A program made the translations under genes and the position numbers. Below are positions 9,110 through 23,388 of a DNA stretch of 27,786 nucleotides, piece by piece (position 1 is the stretch's first letter; each line of letters starts with the position of its first letter). Source of the DNA: a virus (lineage: Duplodnaviria; Caudoviricetes). The stretch covers positions 1-27,786 of the IMG/VR virus record IMGVR_UViG_3300005512_000263; one strand, given 5' to 3'. The notes beneath the pieces were generated by a model. The model saw only the letters and a program-made list of their open reading frames with translations, ran no database searches and was not told the origin of the DNA.

Positions 9110-9858
9110 TATGCTGCCTCCCGTTTTATGTTCCCACCTTTAATCGCTGTCATGAGTGTGGAAAAATCCAATGGAATCTCGTCTGGAATCTGATATCTTG
9201 ATTTTGCCCGCCATGCTGGACGATTGGATGAATAAAGGACCCTTTCTCCGGAGCCAACCGCCTTGTATTTCTGAGTGGCCTTGTCCTTGGTCACAACGGT
9301 GCGGAAATTGGCAAACAAAACAGCGTCTGCCCACTCTTCAATGGCCGTGGCTGCATGACGGTGCAGCTTTATCTGATACCGATCATAAGGATCATTATCA
9401 GGAGGGTTAAATGTCTTGATTTCATTGTGCGCCAAAAGAATAATGGCAATGCCTTTTTCCCGGATCTTGTTTAGACCGTTCAAAAACTTTTCCCAATGTT
9501 TCATGGCAAAGATATAGGCTTTTCCGTATCCTATATCCTCTGGTGTTTCGACACCCTTTTCTTGACAGACCTTAGAAAATATCAACTTTTCCAACCAGTC
9601 TATGGTGTCAACGACAAATGTTTTATATTGGTGGTCCTGCTCAATAATTGCGCCCATATACTGCCAGACTTCATCCAATGACTTTGCAAGCGGGAAGTGG
9701 TCAACCTCAATATTGGTCAACCCATCTTCTGTGATAAGAAAAATAGGCTCAGGTGCATTGCTGGCAAAATAAGATTTGCCAACACCATGGATGCCGTGTA
9801 CAACAATCCTGGGAGGTCTTGATTCTTCTTTTGATTTAATCAAAGATTTAAGATCCAT
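9109..9858 (-). CDS. Sak4-like AAA_24 ATPase (phage single-strand annealing recombinase)
   Basis: HGIHGVGKS Walker A, VVDTIDW Walker B, GYGKAY, EWADAVLF, AKSR. Confidence 0.9.
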   Translation of the reverse strand: MDLKSLIKSKEESRPPRIVVHGIHGVGKSYFASNAPEPIFLITEDGLTNIEVDHFPLAKSLDEVWQYMGAIIEQDHQYKTFVVDTIDWLEKLIFSKVCQEKGVETPEDIGYGKAYIFAMKHWEKFLNGLNKIREKGIAIILLAHNEIKTFNPPDNDPYDRYQIKLHRHAATAIEEWADAVLFANFRTVVTKDKATQKYKAVGSGERVLYSSNRPAWRAKSRYQIPDEIPLDFSTLMTAIKGGNIKREAA

Positions 9859-9860
9859 GA

Positions 9861-10217
9861 TCACACCCCCTCTATTTTTAACGATGGTTTCCCAGGCTTG
9901 GTGGTGATACACTTTGCGACCAATGCCGGATCTATCCTTTCAATCATTCTGAGATTTTTCAAATTGATTGACGGTTTAAAATCAACGAAACTCATATTCT
10001 CCGGCAACTGCAAATCCTGATAGGCACCGATGTCCAGGTTACGATTGAGCTTCGTTGTGACGGAAATTTTAAATCCATCTACAGCCTTGGTTTCGGTCCC
10101 TTCAATTTTTGTCGGTCCAATGGCTTTGATTAGTGCCGCCTCTGCTGTAAGGCGGGTTTCCTTTGCCGCTTTTTCTCTTGCTTTGGCCATAATGACCGCT
10201 TGACACAAGTCTTTCAT
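9861..10217 (-). CDS. Conserved phage protein of the Sak4 recombination module
   Basis: AGGAG RBS; N-terminal helix and C-terminal TTKPGKPSLKI. Confidence 0.75.
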   Translation of the reverse strand: MKDLCQAVIMAKAREKAAKETRLTAEAALIKAIGPTKIEGTETKAVDGFKISVTTKLNRNLDIGAYQDLQLPENMSFVDFKPSINLKNLRMIERIDPALVAKCITTKPGKPSLKIEGV

Positions 10218-10284
10218 CTCATGACTCCTTATATTAGATGCAGCCGGACCATTTCCGGCTGGGTATAAACAATATTTTAATTGT

Positions 10285-10524
10285 TCATGCTGCTCCTTTT
10301 GATTTTTCCAGGCAAAAAACGATCTCATTTTCTATCCGGCCCCGGTATTCATTTAAAATGGTGATATACAAGTCGTCGCTAATATCACCGTCGTTTATTT
10401 TGATGTCTGATATTTCTATTTCAGGCCGGAACCCGGGTTGTGTCCGTGTGCGGATCTGTCCCGGGTTGAGAACCACATATTTAACCGTCATTTCCGGGTG
10501 ACAGAATGATTCATGGATAGGCAT
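10285..10524 (-). CDS. Hypothetical protein
   Basis: AGGAGGT RBS; tight packing with neighbours. Confidence 0.65.
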   Translation of the reverse strand: MPIHESFCHPEMTVKYVVLNPGQIRTRTQPGFRPEIEISDIKINDGDISDDLYITILNEYRGRIENEIVFCLEKSKGAA

Positions 10525-10526
10525 AC

Positions 10527-10691
10527 TTACCTCCTGTGAATGTTTACTATCGAAAGCATTGCCGCACTGAACAGCATCACGCCTCCGGTTGATGCCAATA
10601 CCTGAACCAGCAGGTTATCCGCTTCTGAACCTGCCAGGATAAGCCCGGTCAATGACAGGGTAGCAAGTATTGTTGTCCAGATTTTTTTCAT
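10527..10691 (-). CDS. Small two-TM membrane protein
   Basis: MKKIWTTILATLSLTGLILAG...; AAGGAGG RBS. Confidence 0.7.
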   Translation of the reverse strand: MKKIWTTILATLSLTGLILAGSEADNLLVQVLASTGGVMLFSAAMLSIVNIHRR

Positions 10692-10704
10692 TTTTCCTCC
10701 TTTT

Positions 10705-10737
10705 GGGCTTGGAACCCCCTCATAGACTTCCAAGCCC
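10705..10737 (-). promoter_or_regulatory. Leader hairpin, putative antisense-RNA target
   Basis: Perfect 10-bp stem GGGCTTGGAA/TTCCAAGCCC directly 5' of the RBS; 25/27 identity with 14375-14401. Confidence 0.65.
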
Positions 10738-10772
10738 GTTGTTAATGTTGGTATTACCGCTCTTGCCTATGT

Positions 10773-11387
10773 TTATGCCGCTTCAATCTGTTTTAGCCCC
10801 TCAACGGCATCTAAAATATTTTTGTTTCCAGCCAGATAAGCACCAAGCAATCTGGTTAACGGTTCAGATGGTTCAGGAAGTTTGTTGCTTGCAATCATGG
10901 GCAACAATGTAGAAAACCCATCAATAAGACCATCAACAATATCCTGTCTGCTTAATTCCGGGTTTCTTTTTGCATATGAATTGACAACCTTTATTGCGTT
11001 TCCAAGACCATTTTTAACAACGATCATAACCCCGCATTTCGCCATTAATTCAGGAACGTAAATACTGGATGATTTTGATTTGTATTTCCATACGGTTGTG
11101 AATGCGACATAGTTAGACAGGGCACTGTGTAAAATAGATTCCCCCTGTGTATGTACCTCTGGATTATTGTCAAGCCAAAAGTCGCTAAGGTCACTAACAA
11201 AGGTTTCCATTTCAACAAAATTTCTTGGTTTCTCAACGCTTTCCGAATTACAAAATCGCTTGATTGCTCCATTGATTTTCGCAGCCGTGTACGGTGTTGC
11301 GTCAAGAAACTGTTTCGCATCCGCATAGTTCAGGACTCCCTGATACTTGCGTTCTAATTTTTTCTCTTGAGTTGCATCTACTCTCAT
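10773..11387 (-). CDS. Hypothetical protein
   Basis: 204-aa ORF with AAGGA RBS. Confidence 0.7.
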   Translation of the reverse strand: MRVDATQEKKLERKYQGVLNYADAKQFLDATPYTAAKINGAIKRFCNSESVEKPRNFVEMETFVSDLSDFWLDNNPEVHTQGESILHSALSNYVAFTTVWKYKSKSSSIYVPELMAKCGVMIVVKNGLGNAIKVVNSYAKRNPELSRQDIVDGLIDGFSTLLPMIASNKLPEPSEPLTRLLGAYLAGNKNILDAVEGLKQIEAA

Positions 11388-11400
11388 GTTATTATTTCCT

Positions 11401-12543
11401 TTAGACATTAATGATTGCATCCTGTGACCCGGTTAATTGCTCTAATTGCCGGGTTGCTTTTTGGATAACCTGCTGAACCGTCTGGATTGATTTTTCCATT
11501 CCCCCGCCAAGTTCCTCCATTTCTTTGCCAAGGGTGCCTATATCAATCAGAAAGTCCTTGCCGGATCTTTCCAAAGTTTTCATCATTGAATTGTCAATAT
11601 TTGTTGGGTTGTCCACTTCAAGCTGAGATTTCAGCCGGTCGATTTCAGTTTCCATCTCACGGTATTTAGACCAAGAGGCTGAGGCTTTATCTAACGCCTC
11701 TTTTTGTTTGAGTTCTGCTTTCTTTTTCTCGTCTTCAAGTTTTTCGATTTGGTCTTTAAATCTTTTCTCGTGAAGTTCAGAAGCGGTCTTTTCTGCAACT
11801 TTCCTGTCTTCAAACCTTTGCCGGTCAAATTCATCTTTCAGCTTCTTAATTTCAAATTCTTTGTCAGCTAAAATCTTTGCCGTGTCCGACTGTGCGACTG
11901 CATCCAGTTTTTGCTTAACCTCATCCCGCTCTTTTGATATTTTGTTCAGGTCTTCTAAGGCCATTAGTTTTTCATCAAGCGCAGCTTGTTTTGCTTTGTT
12001 CGCATATTGACTGCTTTCAAACAGGTTTAAATAAAGCCTCTGTGATTCTTCATCCAGGACGGACAGGCGGTTTGCCATGCCTATTGTAATGGACGCACCC
12101 TTGTATTTTTTTAATAACTGCGGTATCAGGTTGTTGACATCCGGGGTCTTGCCCGATTCAAGTTCTTTGATGCGCTTGTGGGCGGCTATTAATTCTTTGG
12201 ATTGTTTGACGGTTAATGATTTTTCTTGTTCGGCTGCCTCTCTGGCTGATTCCGGAGTGGATGGCCGGGAAAGTTCAATAAGGACTTGGCTTGAAAAGCG
12301 TAGTTGACTACGCTTTTGACCGTAATGTTGAGCAATGTTCATATAATTTTGACATTGCCGTTCTTTCAATCCGGTTTCCCGCTCGATCAACGGGATAAAC
12401 TCACCATGAGGGGTGTTATCTTTGATGCTGATCAGAATCTTGCCTATATTGATACCGGATTCAACGTGAGTTTCAAGTTCTCGTTTTAACCTGTTCAAGT
12501 CGCTTTCTATCGGGCTGTAATCGTTGGTTTCCATTATATCCAT
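11401..12543 (-). CDS. DUF3102-like N-terminal domain plus long coiled coil
   Basis: IGKILISIKDNTPHGEF...ERQCQNYMNIA. Confidence 0.75.
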   Translation of the reverse strand: MDIMETNDYSPIESDLNRLKRELETHVESGINIGKILISIKDNTPHGEFIPLIERETGLKERQCQNYMNIAQHYGQKRSQLRFSSQVLIELSRPSTPESAREAAEQEKSLTVKQSKELIAAHKRIKELESGKTPDVNNLIPQLLKKYKGASITIGMANRLSVLDEESQRLYLNLFESSQYANKAKQAALDEKLMALEDLNKISKERDEVKQKLDAVAQSDTAKILADKEFEIKKLKDEFDRQRFEDRKVAEKTASELHEKRFKDQIEKLEDEKKKAELKQKEALDKASASWSKYREMETEIDRLKSQLEVDNPTNIDNSMMKTLERSGKDFLIDIGTLGKEMEELGGGMEKSIQTVQQVIQKATRQLEQLTGSQDAIINV

Positions 12544-12560
12544 TGTTTACCTTTACCCTT

Positions 12561-12770
12561 TTAATCCCTGCTGCTAAGATAGATTTCAGGGTTGAACTCG
12601 TTTTCGTGGATCTGTCTTGCCATTACAAAAAGGATTGATTGTTTTAATTTGGCTTTTTGAGGAGGGGAAAGTTTGTCCAGCTTAACCTTTAAAATCTCAG
12701 GGATTTTAACCGTCCAGCTCTCATTGCATTTATCTATTTCAATCCCGGTCATCAAGTCAGCTTCCAGCAT
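12561..12770 (-). CDS. Small putative regulator at the CII-like position
   Basis: Directly downstream of cro; WTVKIPEILKVKLDKL is RHH-like. Confidence 0.5.
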   Translation of the reverse strand: MLEADLMTGIEIDKCNESWTVKIPEILKVKLDKLSPPQKAKLKQSILFVMARQIHENEFNPEIYLSSRD

Positions 12771-13013
12771 TTACGCTGCTCCTTGTTGTTCTGATTTGAA
12801 TTTTAATTGTTCATACAGGTTATTTAATTCTTGTGTTGATGCGTTCTTCCATCCAAGGATGTCTTTGCCTGGGAATAGTTTTGAAAGCTCAACTGCGAGT
12901 GGAAAACTTACCTTGTCGGTGCCAGAAAGCAGCCTGCTAACGCCTGGTTGGTCAAGACAGGTGAACATTGCCGCAAAGTCTTTTTGTGTGAATTTTTTGT
13001 TTCTCTGTTTCAT
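12771..13013 (-). CDS. Cro-like XRE HTH repressor
   Basis: TQKDFA...DQPGVSRLLSG...LAVELSK; divergent from the CI-like gene. Confidence 0.8.
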   Translation of the reverse strand: MKQRNKKFTQKDFAAMFTCLDQPGVSRLLSGTDKVSFPLAVELSKLFPGKDILGWKNASTQELNNLYEQLKFKSEQQGAA

Positions 13014-13020
13014 AATGGCT

Positions 13021-13095
13021 TCATATTATACTCATATTATGAATGTGTCAACACAAAATATGAAAAAAAATCATTTATTGTTTTTTATTATGAAA
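13021..13095. promoter_or_regulatory. Lysis/lysogeny switch: leftward promoter and operators
   Basis: Minus strand TTGACA (13051-13046)...TATAATAT; palindrome TCATATTATGA (13032-13042) with degenerate copies nearby. Confidence 0.6.
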
Positions 13096-13160
13096 TATTA
13101 ATAAAATAGGATGGTTATAAGATGTTGATGCCGAATAAAAATTGTTTTAATGTCCATTAT

Positions 13161-13688
13161 ATGGAAGACACGGTAAAAATATTTCTTGCTGGTTTTAAAA
13201 AATGGGCCAAGTTGCACAGAATAACCCAAAAGAATATCTGTTCTGTCGTGTCAAAAGATCAAACCACCATTTCAAACTACTTCAACTTTAAAACAAGACC
13301 AGAACCTGAAATGGTACAAAAATGGATAGACCATTACAATTTAGATGAAAATGAGATCATCCAAACCGGCAGAAAAGAACTCCAGCCCGACATATTACCA
13401 GAGGACCGGATAAACGAGATTGTTGACAAGCGTATTGCAAAAATGAACAGACCTGAGAATAATGTAATTGATATGGGAGATCCGGTTAAGTTGGAATTGT
13501 ATAAAATAATCAACGATTTTCCTAACAAGCTCCAGGGGTTAGAGCTTAACCGCCTGGCCGTCCAGCTTGCTAAGGTGGACCCGGAGGCATTGAAAGACAT
13601 TATAGAACTGATTGATTTTAAATTGGGTAAATCACGGAAGGAGCTTGGCCAGTCTCCCGTATTAAAAAAGGACGTACGGGGAGCCTGA
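13161..13688 (+). CDS. CI-like XRE HTH repressor lacking an S24 peptidase domain
   Basis: ITQKNIC...DQTTISNYFNFKTRP HTH; helical C-terminus; start could be 13122. Confidence 0.75.
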   Translation: MEDTVKIFLAGFKKWAKLHRITQKNICSVVSKDQTTISNYFNFKTRPEPEMVQKWIDHYNLDENEIIQTGRKELQPDILPEDRINEIVDKRIAKMNRPENNVIDMGDPVKLELYKIINDFPNKLQGLELNRLAVQLAKVDPEALKDIIELIDFKLGKSRKELGQSPVLKKDVRGA

Positions 13689-13762
13689 TTTCCCTTAACC
13701 TCGATTACAACATCCACTTTATCAGCCGTGACCTGATTTTTAAAAGCACGACACAGCGCAAA

Positions 13763-14068
13763 ATGATATCCTGCAACGTGGATGATATCATAGGCAAGCA
13801 CATGTCAGAGTTTTTGGAGCCGGAAGAATACGAACGTGAATCAAAAATAATTAATCAGTGCTTTATTACAGGCCAGTCCGTGTGGTATCCTTATAGAATC
13901 TGCGGAGTTAATTTCATGGTCCTTGCGGACAAGATCAGCAACGACCTGGTTGCCCTGCACGAGTGCTGGCACGATATGGCCAGGACGGAAGAGATCAAAC
14001 GGATGTTGTGGGCAGCGTCCGGGAATTTTTACCGGCAGTATCACAGCAAAAAACAGGAAACAGGGTAA
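13763..14068 (+). CDS. PAS-fold-like small protein (frame open upstream to about 13631)
   Basis: DDIIGKHMSEFLEPEEYERE...CFITGQ resembles the PAS core; upstream in-frame LNLDYNIHFIS resembles the first PAS strands. Confidence 0.55.
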   Translation: MISCNVDDIIGKHMSEFLEPEEYERESKIINQCFITGQSVWYPYRICGVNFMVLADKISNDLVALHECWHDMARTEEIKRMLWAASGNFYRQYHSKKQETG

Positions 14069-14082
14069 AAAAGGAAGGCATT

Positions 14083-14337
14083 ATGGACACAAAAGACGCA
14101 TTGTTTCAGCAGGACACGGACAACATGATTACAATCATGGTTTATCTGGCCTGCATCATGCCTGTTTATTACGGGTTCAAAAAAAGCCCCCTGCACGGGC
14201 TCATAAATTCGGGCGCGGTCGGCGCGGTCCTGTACTGTTACTTTACGTTCCCGGTCGCCCAGACTATCATTGCCGTTTTGTTCATCGTCTACATCCTGGT
14301 CGGGGTTATCGGCAGCGCAATAAAAAATGTTTTTTAG
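14083..14337 (+). CDS. Small three-TM membrane protein (possible superinfection exclusion)
   Basis: Hydrophobic segments, AAGGAAGG RBS, located in the repressor operon. Confidence 0.55.
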   Translation: MDTKDALFQQDTDNMITIMVYLACIMPVYYGFKKSPLHGLINSGAVGAVLYCYFTFPVAQTIIAVLFIVYILVGVIGSAIKNVF

Positions 14338-14338
14338 C

Positions 14339-14367
14339 TTGACAAACAATTAAAACTTCCTGATAAT
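14339..14367 (+). promoter_or_regulatory. Strong sigma70-type promoter for the rightward accessory/cassette operon
   Basis: TTGACA (14339-14344), 17 bp, GATAAT (14362-14367). Confidence 0.75.
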
Positions 14368-14373
14368 CATCAT

Positions 14374-14416
14374 CGGAACCCCCTCATAGGCTTCTAAGCC
14401 CTCCAAAGCGGAGGGC
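14374..14416 (+). ncRNA. Candidate trans-acting antisense RNA / leader RNA
   Basis: Starts at the predicted +1; 27 nt complementary (two G:U pairs) to the minus-strand mRNA at 10711-10737; 3' hairpin GCCCTCC/GGAGGGC. Confidence 0.55.
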
Positions 14417-14607
14417 AGCATGACACAAAAATCTGTATTAAAAAATGAACCGGGAAAGAACCGTAATGGATCTTCACCGGTTTTCTGCGTTTTACCGACA
14501 ATACCTGCAGCATACCCGGCAAGCATCTATCAAAAACCGTTCCGTTATTCTACAAAACGGGCGGTCCACCTGTATGAAATCAATAACAGCGTCATGGGGA
14601 TTGCCAG

Positions 14608-15030
14608 ATGATGGACAATCAATACCGGAAGTTGTCTGAATTGGCGTTGATCAGATCCATACCCGATATGACCATCGGCACATTGAAACCCTCCCGTAAA
14701 AAGGGACTGTTCCTGCGCATGCAAAAGGCGGTTGACAAGGATATCAGGGACCTGCCCAAGCCGTCAGATGACGACCTGTCCAAGATATGGGAGACCATTG
14801 AAGAGTTCGGCAGGCAAACCGGTTGGCTGAACCAGACCAGGCACATAGGGACCCTGTTTTCGTTTTGCCTTGAGATTATCGAGCGGTCAGAGTTTGAGTT
14901 TAATCCGGATATTGTCAGTATTATAAATGATATTATCAACCACCTGGAAGACGGTAAAGATTTTCTATATCAAAGCTGTTGGGCCGGTGGGCTTGCTGCA
15001 AAGAAATGGGAGGGATTGTTTGATGAATAA
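14608..15030 (+). CDS. Hypothetical helical protein
   Basis: 140-aa ORF overlapping the next gene. Confidence 0.7.
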   Translation: MMDNQYRKLSELALIRSIPDMTIGTLKPSRKKGLFLRMQKAVDKDIRDLPKPSDDDLSKIWETIEEFGRQTGWLNQTRHIGTLFSFCLEIIERSEFEFNPDIVSIINDIINHLEDGKDFLYQSCWAGGLAAKKWEGLFDE

Positions 15031-18044: not shown

Positions 18045-18425
18045 TTGATTTCTACATTGCCACAAATAGTTGACATAGACGGTCTTGCTAAGATATTGTC
18101 ATGTAGCAAGTCAACGATCCTGCAAACCTGGAGGCGGTATCCTCATTTCTTTATAGGGAAAGGAGATACTGCAAAAGGGGTCAGGTTCGACGTGCTTGAT
18201 GTTGTCGATTATTTAAAAGGCAGAGATTATGCCAACCTGGGATCAGAAAACAAAGAGCTTCAAAGGACGGGTGCGGATAGGCGGACATCCGCAAACCGTA
18301 AGAACAGGATTTTTGAACAGGGAAGCCGCAAAGAGATGGGAACTCAACACCAAACACGCTCTCAAGAATCAAAAACCTGTCACAGAACCGGAGATCCGTT
18401 TAACCTTTGCATCGGGGTCCACTGA
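18045..18425 (+). CDS. Excisionase/AlpA-like winged-helix protein overlapping int
   Basis: VDIDGLAKILSCSKSTILQ...YPHFFIG...VRFDVLDVVDYL, immediately upstream of the integrase. Confidence 0.75.
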   Translation: MISTLPQIVDIDGLAKILSCSKSTILQTWRRYPHFFIGKGDTAKGVRFDVLDVVDYLKGRDYANLGSENKELQRTGADRRTSANRKNRIFEQGSRKEMGTQHQTRSQESKTCHRTGDPFNLCIGVH

Positions 18426-19281
18426 TTATCTAACGCATTGTCAAAATCACGATTACGCACCAGGGACAATCGTTACCAAGTCACAAATTGTAAGAGACTT
18501 CATATCATTCCTGAAACACGACCCACCAATTGAATCAATTGATTCCAATATAATCGAATCCTATCTCAATTCAAAACAAAAAAAGAAGACAGCAAACCGG
18601 CATTTGAGAGAGTTAAAAACCATTTTTAACTGGCTCAAGAAAAACAAATATGTTGCCGGCAATCCATGCGAAGACATAGAAAAATATCGAGTTACGAAGC
18701 ATTACCCTTATGTCCCGCCGCCAGAAGATATCAACAAGGTTCTTCTTGTCGCTGATGATTTCCAGTATGATTTTTTGCAGACCATCTATCACCTGTCGGC
18801 AAGAAGAAAAGAGGTTATGAATTTAAAATGGGAAGATGTAGACTTTGAAAACAGGACAGTCTCCGTGTGGACCCGTAAAAGATTCGGCGGCGACATGGAA
18901 AGGGACACGCTTGGAATGAACAGCATCCTTTACGGAATACTCAAGTCCAGGCATGACCATAAATGCTGTGAATGGGTATTCCATGATAATGGTAAACATC
19001 TTACCCGGTCAAAGATTGAGAAGATGGTCAACAAATTGTGCGAGAAAGCAGGAGTTAAAAAGTTTGGATTCCATTCAATCAGGCACCATGTATCTGCATT
19101 AATGGCAGCCAGCAAAAAACTTTCTTTGGTTGACATTCAACGGCAATTAAGGCATAAAAGCGCAACGACAACAAACCACTATTTAACAGGCTTGGTAAAC
19201 GAAAGTAACGCGGCGGAAGTGATAGAAGAAATGCAGACAAACAGACAATCAAATATTGTGCCAATAAGACAAAAAAAATAA
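18229..19281 (+). CDS. int: Phage tyrosine integrase
   Basis: R (ARRKEV), K, HSIRH, LRH and Y (TNHY) catalytic residues; N-terminal arm-binding and core-binding domains. Confidence 0.93.
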   Translation: MPTWDQKTKSFKGRVRIGGHPQTVRTGFLNREAAKRWELNTKHALKNQKPVTEPEIRLTFASGSTDYLTHCQNHDYAPGTIVTKSQIVRDFISFLKHDPPIESIDSNIIESYLNSKQKKKTANRHLRELKTIFNWLKKNKYVAGNPCEDIEKYRVTKHYPYVPPPEDINKVLLVADDFQYDFLQTIYHLSARRKEVMNLKWEDVDFENRTVSVWTRKRFGGDMERDTLGMNSILYGILKSRHDHKCCEWVFHDNGKHLTRSKIEKMVNKLCEKAGVKKFGFHSIRHHVSALMAASKKLSLVDIQRQLRHKSATTTNHYLTGLVNESNAAEVIEEMQTNRQSNIVPIRQKK

Positions 19282-19475
19282 ATTGGCACTCTTGGAGTGC
19301 CAAAAACTCTCAGCGCCCGTAGCCCAGTGGATAAGGCGTCAGCCTCCGAAGCTGAATTGACGCATCCTCACAACACCGAAAAGCCCGGCAAATCTGGATA
19401 ATCAAAATATCAACTCACACAAAATCACCTAAAATAGTGCCAAAAAAAAATAAATTGGCACTCCAATAGTGCCAA
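19257..19475. mobile_element. attP region with arm-type repeats
   Basis: Two copies of GTGCCAA...AAATAAATTGGCACT-N5-AGTGCCAA (19257-19303, 19436-19475) flank a tRNA fragment. Confidence 0.75.
19313..19355 (+). tRNA. 5' half of tRNA-Arg(CCG), att core; not a complete tRNA
   Basis: GCGCCCG-TA-GCCC AGTGGATA AGGC-G-TCAGC CTCCGAA GCTGA; no T-arm or 3' acceptor strand follows. Confidence 0.8.
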
Positions 19476-19524
19476 AAAGTAACCCTCCTGGGTGCGCTTA
19501 AATCAGAGGCGTGGAGGGTGTTGT

Positions 19525-21687: not shown

Positions 21688-23388
21688 CTATGTTATTGTA
21701 TACGTTCTTTCTTCTGCTTCTATTCCATACGTTCTGTTCTCTGCCAGGATGCTATATATCCTCCACGCTGGTGTATCTGGGGCAGAAAAGTTTAGTCTTG
21801 GTGAACCCAACACCGGAGTGCTTGCCGTGATACCCAAAGCGGCCAATACGTGAGTCTGGCCTATTAATAATGAACCAACCACCGGGAGGCCGGTTGTGAC
21901 ACCATCTGAAACAAAAGAATGGATTTGGCCGATAGCCGGTGAGCCGATATCTGGGGAACTATTTGTTATGCCGGTTGCGGATAGGGTATGGGTCTGCCCA
22001 AGCCCAGGGGATACTAAAACCGGTGTACCTGCAGTAATATCTAAAAGAGAAAGGCCATTGATGGTCCCGGAGCCAAGATCAGGTGACCCAAGCACAGGCG
22101 TACTTGCGGTTATGTCTTCAGGTGATAACGTATGGGTCTGGCCAACCGATGGGGTCCCAAGCTCCGGTATACCTGAGATAAAATCCTCGAGAACAAACGA
22201 GTGGGTCTGACCAACCGCAGGAGATTCAATATCAGGAGCGCCCGTCGTGATATCTGAAGCGATTAGGGTGCTGGTCTGGCCAATGGCCGGGGAGGCTATA
22301 TCAGGTATTCCGGAAACAAAACCTGTCGGTGATAACGTATGGGTCTGGCCAAGGTTGGGTGAACCTAAAACAGGGGTGCCGGTAATCAAGTTTATGGGCA
22401 ATAAAGTTGAAGGTGGTTCTGCGGCTGAATCAAAAACAAAAAACAACTGATCATCATCAAAAAATGATGTGGTGATTGTCGGTTTTATAAACTCAATATC
22501 AGACGGCCATCTTAGAGTTGATGCGCCGTCATCTGCAATTGACCATGTTTTAATTGATGTCAGATACAGTTTTTTATTTGCCGGTGCGCCTGTGTAATAT
22601 TTGGCTGATCCGAAATGTGCTGATACCCCCGACTGTAAATTTTGGTGCGACCAATTGACAAGGGCCTTGGAATATATTTCGTCCGTTAGTCCTGAGCAAT
22701 TGCGGAACGCATAGTAAAAGGTCGTGACTGCTGAGACATCCCAGGACGACACGTCCAGTGTTGTCAAAGATGAGCAACTGCGGAACGCATAGTAAAAGGT
22801 CGTGACTGCTGAGACATCCCAGGACGACACGTCCAGTGTTGTCAAAGATGAGCAATTGTAGAACGCATAGTAAAAGCTCTCGACTGCTGAGACATCCCAG
22901 GACGACACGTCCAGTGTTGTCAAAGATGAGCAATTGCAGAACGCATAGTAAAAGCTCTCGACTGCTGAGACATCCCAGGACGAAACGTCCAGTGTTGTCA
23001 AAGATGAGCAACTGCGGAACGCAGAGGAAAAGCTCGTGACTGCTGATATACCAAAGATCCCGGTTGCACTAACAGTCATGCCAGAACAACCATAGAAAAA
23101 GGCGACATTCGCCCCGACATCCAGGTCACCCCAATCTGAAACATCCCGAACTTTAGGGGCAGACGAGGAATTATCAAATTTCCAGCCGGTTATTGTGCCA
23201 GTAATTGTGATTGTGTAGGTATCAGCGGTCGCATATGTGTGAGTAATAGCAGCATCGTTATAAGTGGTGATATCATCATCTGACGAATCACCCCAATCAA
23301 CATTAAAATCATAAGTGCCATTGCTGGTCAGGGGCAGAGTAAATGTCTCTGACGCCCCGGTAGTCAGTATGTCAAATACAAATGCCAT
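21688..23388 (-). CDS. PKD + DUF285/BspA-like LRR surface protein with C-terminal ~24-aa repeats (putative receptor-binding protein)
   Basis: VDWGD...HTYA PKD domain; WDVSAVxxFxxAFxxCSSL repeats; GQTHxL...GxPxxxSP repeats. Confidence 0.85.
   Translation of the reverse strand: MAFVFDILTTGASETFTLPLTSNGTYDFNVDWGDSSDDDITTYNDAAITHTYATADTYTITITGTITGWKFDNSSSAPKVRDVSDWGDLDVGANVAFFYGCSGMTVSATGIFGISAVTSFSSAFRSCSSLTTLDVSSWDVSAVESFYYAFCNCSSLTTLDVSSWDVSAVESFYYAFYNCSSLTTLDVSSWDVSAVTTFYYAFRSCSSLTTLDVSSWDVSAVTTFYYAFRNCSGLTDEIYSKALVNWSHQNLQSGVSAHFGSAKYYTGAPANKKLYLTSIKTWSIADDGASTLRWPSDIEFIKPTITTSFFDDDQLFFVFDSAAEPPSTLLPINLITGTPVLGSPNLGQTHTLSPTGFVSGIPDIASPAIGQTSTLIASDITTGAPDIESPAVGQTHSFVLEDFISGIPELGTPSVGQTHTLSPEDITASTPVLGSPDLGSGTINGLSLLDITAGTPVLVSPGLGQTHTLSATGITNSSPDIGSPAIGQIHSFVSDGVTTGLPVVGSLLIGQTHVLAALGITASTPVLGSPRLNFSAPDTPAWRIYSILAENRTYGIEAEERTYTIT
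22693..23046. repeat. 78-bp tandem repeat x4.5 encoding 26-aa LRR units
   Basis: Near-identical units differing at a few fixed columns. Confidence 0.95.

Follow-up and report, generated by a model that had tools for sequence, protein, structure and literature searches.

Complementary elements in two divergent early operons of related phages suggest a trans-acting RNA pair of toehold-switch type

In phage lambda, control of the second early arm is the job of the OL operators and of N-nut antitermination. The partners of the IS10 antisense pair, RNA-OUT and RNA-IN, are encoded on opposite strands of one site, and the icd-ant operon controlled by the C4 RNA of phage P1 is headed by an Icd/Kil (Ash-like) leader protein. 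In the present work, such systems were compared with a pair of complementary elements, A and B, found in the two divergent early operons of a single virus record of 27,786 nucleotides (nt) (IMG/VR record IMGVR_UViG_3300005512_000263; this whole stretch is called the window). In the sections of the literature cited here, phage antisense RNAs mostly repress (OOP, PaQ, sar and CI); the first three are listed as repressing in PMC5415839. The CI RNA of P4 and its targets, seqA (upstream) and seqC (downstream), derive from one transcript, out of which the RNA is processed, according to the relevant passages of PMC4825925. The same passages describe IsrK of the Salmonella prophage Gifsy-1, the closest natural case, which activates within its own locus: this RNA exposes in trans the ribosome-binding site (RBS) of a small leader open reading frame (ORF), and translation runs into the coupled next gene (PMC4825925). 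In IS10, the loop of the RNA-OUT hairpin recognises the unstructured 5' end of RNA-IN, and variants of the pair are orthogonal (PMC4737173, section on antisense pairs). Natural toehold switches are called scarce in the section of a review that deals with them (PMC8601185).

Positions 14375-14401 and 10711-10737 of the window were identical at 25 of 27 positions, as a first-pass annotation of this DNA had reported, and the two copies lie 3.7 kb apart. No third copy of the 27-mer with fewer than nine mismatches was found on either strand of the window. The pair was the only 27-nt repeat with two or fewer mismatches and more than 200 nt between copies (outside one tandem-repeat gene), and 30 locally shuffled windows contained none. 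The exact repeat pattern gave 0 matches in viral contigs, which is expected if the sequence is private to each phage. The promoter that had been placed at 14339 and the 10-bp hairpin that had been described as adjoining an RBS were both recovered. The features that make up the two elements are as follows:

10705..10737, minus strand: element A, the predicted trigger, a 10-bp hairpin with a 13-nt loop (10715-10727) in the cro-side mRNA (-22.4 kcal/mol, z -4.8)
10696..10700, minus strand: GGAGG RBS just past hairpin A, predicted to be open whether paired or unpaired
10738..10767, minus strand: A/C-rich stretch upstream of hairpin A, headed by the GGCAAGAGC motif (10767-10759)
14339..14367, plus strand: PL-like promoter of B, TTGACA-17-GATAAT, with a predicted +1 at approximately 14374-14375
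14375..14401, plus strand: 5' end of element B, the predicted toehold, complementary to A
14398..14416, plus strand: 7-bp hairpin with GGAGG (14410-14414) in its 3' arm, 5 nt before the ATG at 14420
14420..14611, plus strand: leader ORF of 63 codons, starting at ATG 14420
14449..14488, plus strand: terminator-like hairpin (14449-14481, -14.3 kcal/mol) that lies within the leader ORF and has a U-rich tail

The segment 10737-10711 of A, which comprises the 5' arm, the loop and part of the 3' arm, can pair with the start of B. Copy B starts where a transcription start is expected, 36 nt downstream of the first base of TTGACA, and its last 4 nt form the base of the hairpin that hides the B RBS. 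Neither this hairpin (14398-14416) nor the terminator-like hairpin (14449-14488) had been recorded in the first-pass annotation, and the latter was not listed by a standard terminator scan, which took only 3-8 nt loops and ungapped stems. Termination at 14449-14488 would give an RNA of approximately 114 nt. Plus-strand RNA from 14375 and the minus-strand mRNA gave a duplex of -57.6 kcal/mol compared to -47.6 kcal/mol for the opposite strand pair, and both mismatches become G:U pairs in the former combination.

Relatives were collected with neighbouring proteins as bait, and a matched pair was found in 20 loci, namely the window and 19 related phage or prophage regions (L010, L012, L014, L015, L024, L026, L039, L045, L046, L048, L050, L054, L062, L065, L067, L070, L072, L086 and L087), with its own sequence in each. 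L045 lies in genome G001, and the searches that gave the other genomic loci covered the family, order, class and phylum of that genome; L050 is closely related to L072, which was excluded from most statistics. Covariation of the two sites, which had been proposed as a check, was therefore seen as matched pairs of unrelated sequences. The local alignment score of cognate copies had a mean of 23.4 and a minimum of 14, compared to a mean of 5.5 and a maximum of 12 for 272 non-cognate combinations. In all 17 loci compared, the repeat began 33-39 nt downstream of the first base of TTGAC, and this distance was 34 nt in two more, L086 and L087; TTGAC was invariant in all 14 aligned loci, and the distance between copies ranged from 381 to 9581 nt. 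The A-type hairpin keeps its position and fold in the relatives with a different sequence; its 3' arm varies along with the repeat and its loop is not conserved.

A repeat detector was run on 70 loci, after removal of 13 that repeated the same contigs. It flagged 17 loci at an offset of 30-42, 16 of them with the architecture, compared to 2-3 at each of six control offsets; many of the 70 loci are short or unrelated, so this count is no estimate of prevalence. Two of five further loci were also flagged, and the detector missed L014 and L070, which were found by duplex scans. It superseded a loose scan of promoters and duplex energies that yielded mostly noise. The flagged locus L073 was not counted, its repeat lying inside coding sequence and having no hairpins. 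An A-type hairpin with no B on the contig was found in L003, L018, L019 and L044, and no pair was found in the related loci L013, L036, L043, L047 and L056. As a genome marker, DUF7173 gave 1 of 161. No Rfam match was obtained near A or B in the window (E <= 1), and only tRNAs were matched in 21 other loci at the gathering score. The covariation in 20 loci gives good support to pairing between RNAs of the two divergent early operons, and indicates, at the level of sequence comparison, that the pair is conserved as a design and not as a sequence. Since only the architecture is conserved, RNA family searches based on sequence would miss the element.

The predicted effect of pairing was asymmetric. 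In ViennaRNA equilibrium models of 17 loci, on fragments chosen by hand, the median energy needed to open the B RBS was 11.3 kcal/mol alone, 3.1 kcal/mol with cognate A and 9.1 kcal/mol with non-cognate A, and it fell by at least 3 kcal/mol in 15 of the 17 loci. The corresponding medians for the A site were 2.0 kcal/mol alone and 1.8 kcal/mol paired (p = 0.31); this site required 3.2 kcal/mol or less, and was thus already open, in 15 of 17 loci, and its opening energy fell by at least 3 kcal/mol in only one. In the window, pairing gained approximately 20 kcal/mol over the separate folds and lowered the opening energy of the B site from 11.3 to 1.9 kcal/mol. For 16 of 18 elements, the cognate partner gave the best pairing in the row. 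In silico, B thus combines a hidden site, a weakly folded upstream toehold, and opening by a cognate but not by a non-cognate trigger, as in a toehold switch. The models therefore predict opening of the B site and no change at the A site. An antisense RNA that links the divergent operons had been proposed in the first-pass annotation; the pairing is upheld by covariation, and the direction given to it, from the 14375 RNA onto the RBS of the recombination/replication genes, is not favoured by the folding models. That RBS lies outside the hairpin and is predicted to be open both unpaired (0.2 kcal/mol) and paired (1.1 kcal/mol), and the direction is probably the reverse.

The argument that the repeat acts as RNA is positional in its stronger part: the repeat starts at +1, it ends inside the arm that pairs with the Shine-Dalgarno (SD) sequence (the anti-SD arm), which it enters by 3-7 nt in 14 of 17 loci, and the hairpin of the partner copy covaries with it. 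Gene conversion or paired operators would account for identity, yet not for these boundaries. Of the 17 loci, 13 also had a hairpin A that was more stable when folded from the mRNA strand (p = 0.0015). The G:U differences, which had been offered as showing the strand that pairs, do so in the window only; over 17 loci, 12 differences of G:U type were counted against 6 of the opposite type (p = 0.12), along with 6 transversions, 8 indel positions and 446 matches, and the asymmetry was rejected as proof of strand.

A terminator-like hairpin followed by a U tract was found after the B start codon in 14 of 17 loci, compared to 1.4 expected from dinucleotide shuffles; the criterion was a hairpin of -8 kcal/mol or better plus a U tract, no more than 110 nt from the B start codon, in loci with enough sequence. 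The stop of the leader ORF overlaps the next start at -1 in the window, L010, L012 and L072 (4 of 16 loci). The leader peptide of the window had zero relatives among 5.8 billion proteins and no PHROG match, 19 relatives were found for the gene after it (a 140-aa protein), and none of the six leader ORFs scanned matched a Pfam family. In L062, a run of seven U follows the RBS-hiding hairpin itself, and the stretch covered by A includes the base of the 5' arm of this hairpin; this arrangement would be direct antitermination. An ORF resembling xis or integrase genes lies at or just behind B in L062, L065, L072, L086 and L087, as judged from translations and tblastn. In L086 (2777-2830) and L087 (11281-11335), where these ORFs lie near tRNA genes, the repeat is followed by a longer hairpin with a GTG or TTG start in its 3' arm, a variant closer to the engineered toehold switch.

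The gene order of the window is lambda-like. The leftward operon runs from a cro-like gene through DUF3102, a 215-aa gene, hairpin A and a 54-amino-acid (aa) hydrophobic ORF to DUF7173 and on through primase. The rightward run consists of a cI-like gene, two small genes, the B promoter, accessory genes, an excisionase-like gene and an integrase. The flanking features are:

13023..13051, minus strand: PR-like promoter, 2.3 kb upstream of A, with no closer upstream promoter-like site on this strand in the scan
12771..13013, minus strand: cro-like helix-turn-helix (HTH) gene, heading the leftward operon that contains A
10527..10691, minus strand: 54-aa hydrophobic ORF directly after hairpin A, the start of the gene run to primase, with homologues in L012, L013, L015 and L026
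3546-10524, minus strand: DUF7173, Sak4-like, SSB, Cas4-like exonuclease, endonuclease, helicase and primase
13122..13688, plus strand: cI-like HTH gene
14608..15030, plus strand: 140-aa conserved protein, the first gene past the leader, followed by a methyltransferase and small ORFs
18045..19281, plus strand: excisionase-like gene (18045-18425) and tyrosine integrase (18229-19281), the end of the rightward run

Five TTCATA/TATGAA words were counted in the cro-cI spacer of the window and four in that of L039, with zero around the B promoter of either, and these words are taken as candidate operator half-sites. In eight loci, no convincing operator word was common to the cro-cI spacer and the B promoter, which is a weak test.

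On the basis of the folding models, we consider it likely that A triggers B: pairing would free translation of the leader, the terminator would be overridden, and the xis-int arm would be switched on after the lytic operon. Without A, B transcripts would be translationally locked and would end at approximately +114. Once cro-side transcription reached A, the A loop would contact the free 5' end of B, and the duplex would zip along the 5' arm of A into the anti-SD arm of B on the nascent RNA. Ribosomes on the leader ORF would then block folding of the terminator and restart on the overlapping next gene. With A approximately 2.3 kb downstream of the PR-like promoter and no candidate operator words at the B promoter, RNA and not the repressor would gate the second operon, and would do so with a delay.

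Several observations weigh against this account. The G:U bias is not significant across the family, and the B hairpin shows no strand preference (8 vs 9). Pairing would have to act before approximately +114. The SD positions were set by an automatic rule, with an assumed anti-SD sequence, on hand-cut fragments. The A site became at least 3 kcal/mol harder to open in 2 of 17 loci, and cognate pairing was not the best in its row for L067 and L072. No opening was predicted for L065 (5.9 to 5.6 kcal/mol), and it was small in L086 (9.6 to 7.2 kcal/mol) and nil in L087 (3.8 to 3.8 kcal/mol), the assignment of the site being uncertain in these two. No leader terminator was detected in L039, L062 and L065, the U tract of the window is short, and the ORF at B encodes a full-length protein and not a short leader in L024, L054 and L065. 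L012 (2515-3005) and L014 (1540-1945), in which only one HTH gene, and none of cI-like type, separates the back-to-back promoters, retain an A/B pair 0.4 kb apart; coupling to release of the repressor is therefore not the whole story. Both records are rated complete, one with a tyrosine integrase and one without.

The reverse effect, in which a short B RNA of approximately 114 nt made in the lysogen would pair with A in the lytic mRNA and lower expression of the recombination/replication genes, is the main rival and, in our view, less probable. It would act either through RNase III cleavage of the 27-bp duplex or through refolding of the freed 3' arm of A onto its RBS, it would amount to RNA immunity or to a threshold against leaky transcription, and it could coexist with triggering of B by A. 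Termination at the terminator-like site would leave B as a discrete small RNA whose 5' end is free, most loci have an SD-like word behind hairpin A, and sequence-specific pairs would suit immunity groups. In the sections cited, RNase III cuts near-perfect antisense duplexes in IS10 (PMC4737173) and in lambda OOP/cII (PMC5415839), and the two loci in which the A site closes by at least 3 kcal/mol fit such damping. However, the A site lies outside the hairpin, is already open in most loci and is unchanged on average; L062 has no such site after A, and in L045 and L015 the working start is further on. Damping of A would also leave unexplained both the complement that enters the anti-SD arm of B and the locked B site.

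A role of the repeat as DNA, either as two operators for one protein (one of them over the +1 of B, with looping) or as homologous stretches at which the cro-cI module could undergo exchange or gene conversion, seems quite improbable. It would suit direct repeats that flank an immunity region, one of them over a predicted start site, and the absence of a significant G:U bias; the perfect identity of several pairs is also expected from gene conversion. Yet no sequence or dyad is common to the phages, copy A is outside any promoter and belongs to a hairpin favoured on the mRNA strand, the repeat stops inside the anti-SD arm, and the spacing varies from a few hundred to several thousand nt. Deletion between the copies would remove both promoters, and the window and L039 have candidate operator words in common whereas their repeats differ. 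More improbable still is that A and B are nut- or put-like RNA sites for antitermination, bound by protein or RNA polymerase. The lambda-like layout, a terminator-like site early in the PL-like arm, and a motif upstream of A that reads like boxA on the opposite strand all point that way, but the sequences in the two transcripts are complementary rather than identical, the loop differs from phage to phage, and no N-like gene was identified.

With triggering of B by A as the favoured account, the locus can be set against the described systems. IsrK, in the passages cited above, would share with it a prophage RNA acting in trans, a leader-ORF RBS that is made accessible, a coupled next gene and a promoter-proximal intrinsic terminator; freeing of the site is predicted by the models in the 15 loci given above, with the -1 overlap in four. 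In contrast to IsrK, where the small RNA and its target come from one promoter, trigger and target here belong to two operons, and the pairing region is one near-perfect block of 20-38 nt from +1, private to each phage and with no Rfam match. P4 CI and P1 C4 would have in common with this locus a phage RNA that is encoded apart from its target and acts on the termination or translation of a short leader ORF with which an operon begins. In those systems the RNA is processed from the transcript of the target itself and represses through two short target sites, whereas here there is one long site in the other operon and activation is predicted, a sign opposite to the premature termination of P4 CI. 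The likeness to these immunity RNAs that had been noted earlier did not extend to membership, by either Rfam or layout, and the window leader has no match of Icd/Kil type in Pfam or PHROG and no homologue.

The loop-to-5'-end geometry of IS10 RNA-OUT/RNA-IN, as given in the section cited, is alike, with the loop and 5' arm of A matching B from its predicted +1. In IS10 pairing blocks the RBS; here the partners are 0.4-9.6 kb apart, the duplex ends in the anti-SD arm and not on the SD, and pairing is predicted to free the site. The crRNA/taRNA riboregulators and toehold switches of synthetic biology (PMC4737173 and PMC8601185, sections on these devices) have a hairpin-locked RBS, strand displacement by a trigger and many independent pairs, as predicted here. 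The present element differs from them in being natural and in that its predicted trigger is a hairpin carried by an mRNA; moreover, the RBS of the window is located in the 3' arm with its start codon beyond the stem, and the terminator-like hairpin of the leader would add a transcriptional output. The order cro, cI, two small genes, leftward-type promoter, accessory genes, xis and int is the same in lambda. Unlike lambda, the locus has no candidate operator words at the second promoter (two loci counted) and no identified N-like gene, and its transcripts are complementary rather than having a nut site in common; no sequence or fold was shared in the sense of each transcript, as nut or put sites would be. 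No description of the element was found in open-licence papers and preprints, a scope that leaves out supplements and subscription papers. Within that literature its parts have precedents, and the two-operon arrangement and the freedom of sequence from phage to phage were not found described.

Upstream of A, a motif of GGCARGARC type lies 23-36 nt away in 8 of 18 loci and stays constant in sequence while the neighbouring hairpin changes; it is listed for the window, L003, L010, L012, L015, L026, L039, L048, L054 and L067. Its reverse complement resembles boxA. A coding remnant was rejected as its origin, since the reading frames, judged by eye, vary between loci. Pairing of an upstream CAUAGGC with the loop of A, which had been put forward as an alternative fold, is possible (-9.1 kcal/mol), but the heptamer lies at 10771-10765, one base from where it had been placed, and the pairing is absent from the predicted fold; as a conserved switch it was rejected because the upstream motif keeps its sequence while the loop varies. 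Two sets of DNA contigs from sequencing runs, aligned to the region, covered neither of the repeats. One low-depth contig of a relative matches the window as far as the foot of hairpin A (10708) and departs from it at precisely that point, which agrees with a hairpin that varies within conserved surroundings. In L044, the 5' part of an A-type hairpin is present a second time in truncated form (1790-1814), 0.5 kb upstream of the complete hairpin (2283-2307), which lies behind a promoter-like site of its own. In the cro-side operon of L054, an RBS-containing stretch of 27-45 nt is repeated four times (9292-11093).

The two small genes between the cI-like gene and the B promoter encode a 101-aa protein (13763-14068) and an 84-aa hydrophobic protein (14083-14337), and occupy the position of rexAB in lambda. 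Neither protein had a significant family match, and the 84-aa protein has homologues in L015, L026 and L045. The 140-aa protein and the cro-like protein had no match in GenBank phages, so no cultured phage is tied to the element. Just after the integrase, two 36-nt direct repeats with an internal dyad (19271-19306 and 19443-19478) flank a tRNA-like remnant below the Rfam cut-off (19313-19364), beside a sub-threshold match to the abiF RNA (19482-19518; 34.4 bits, cut-off 37). A direct repeat of 24-31 nt follows the integrase in L010 and L015 also, and this is probably the attachment region. Elsewhere in the window, a GC-rich hairpin followed by AAGGAG and a start codon is repeated at 888-912 and 1250-1274, preceding two small genes of the cluster 197-1591, and a 566-aa gene (21688-23388) contains internal repeats, four of 78 nt and several of 69-72 nt.

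If the favoured account is true, one early mRNA switches on the other early operon, and excision after the lytic switch is timed by RNA only. The approximately 19 different sequences are predicted to be largely non-cross-reacting, which can be tested with short reporters. More tentatively, the pairs may form a natural family of sequence-programmable toehold switches, through which phages of sulfate reducers wire two early operons by RNA alone, with an orthogonal pair in each phage in place of the second operator and the antiterminator of lambda. They would then be natural instances of a kind of device that has so far come mostly from synthetic biology, and similar pairs may hide in other temperate phages.

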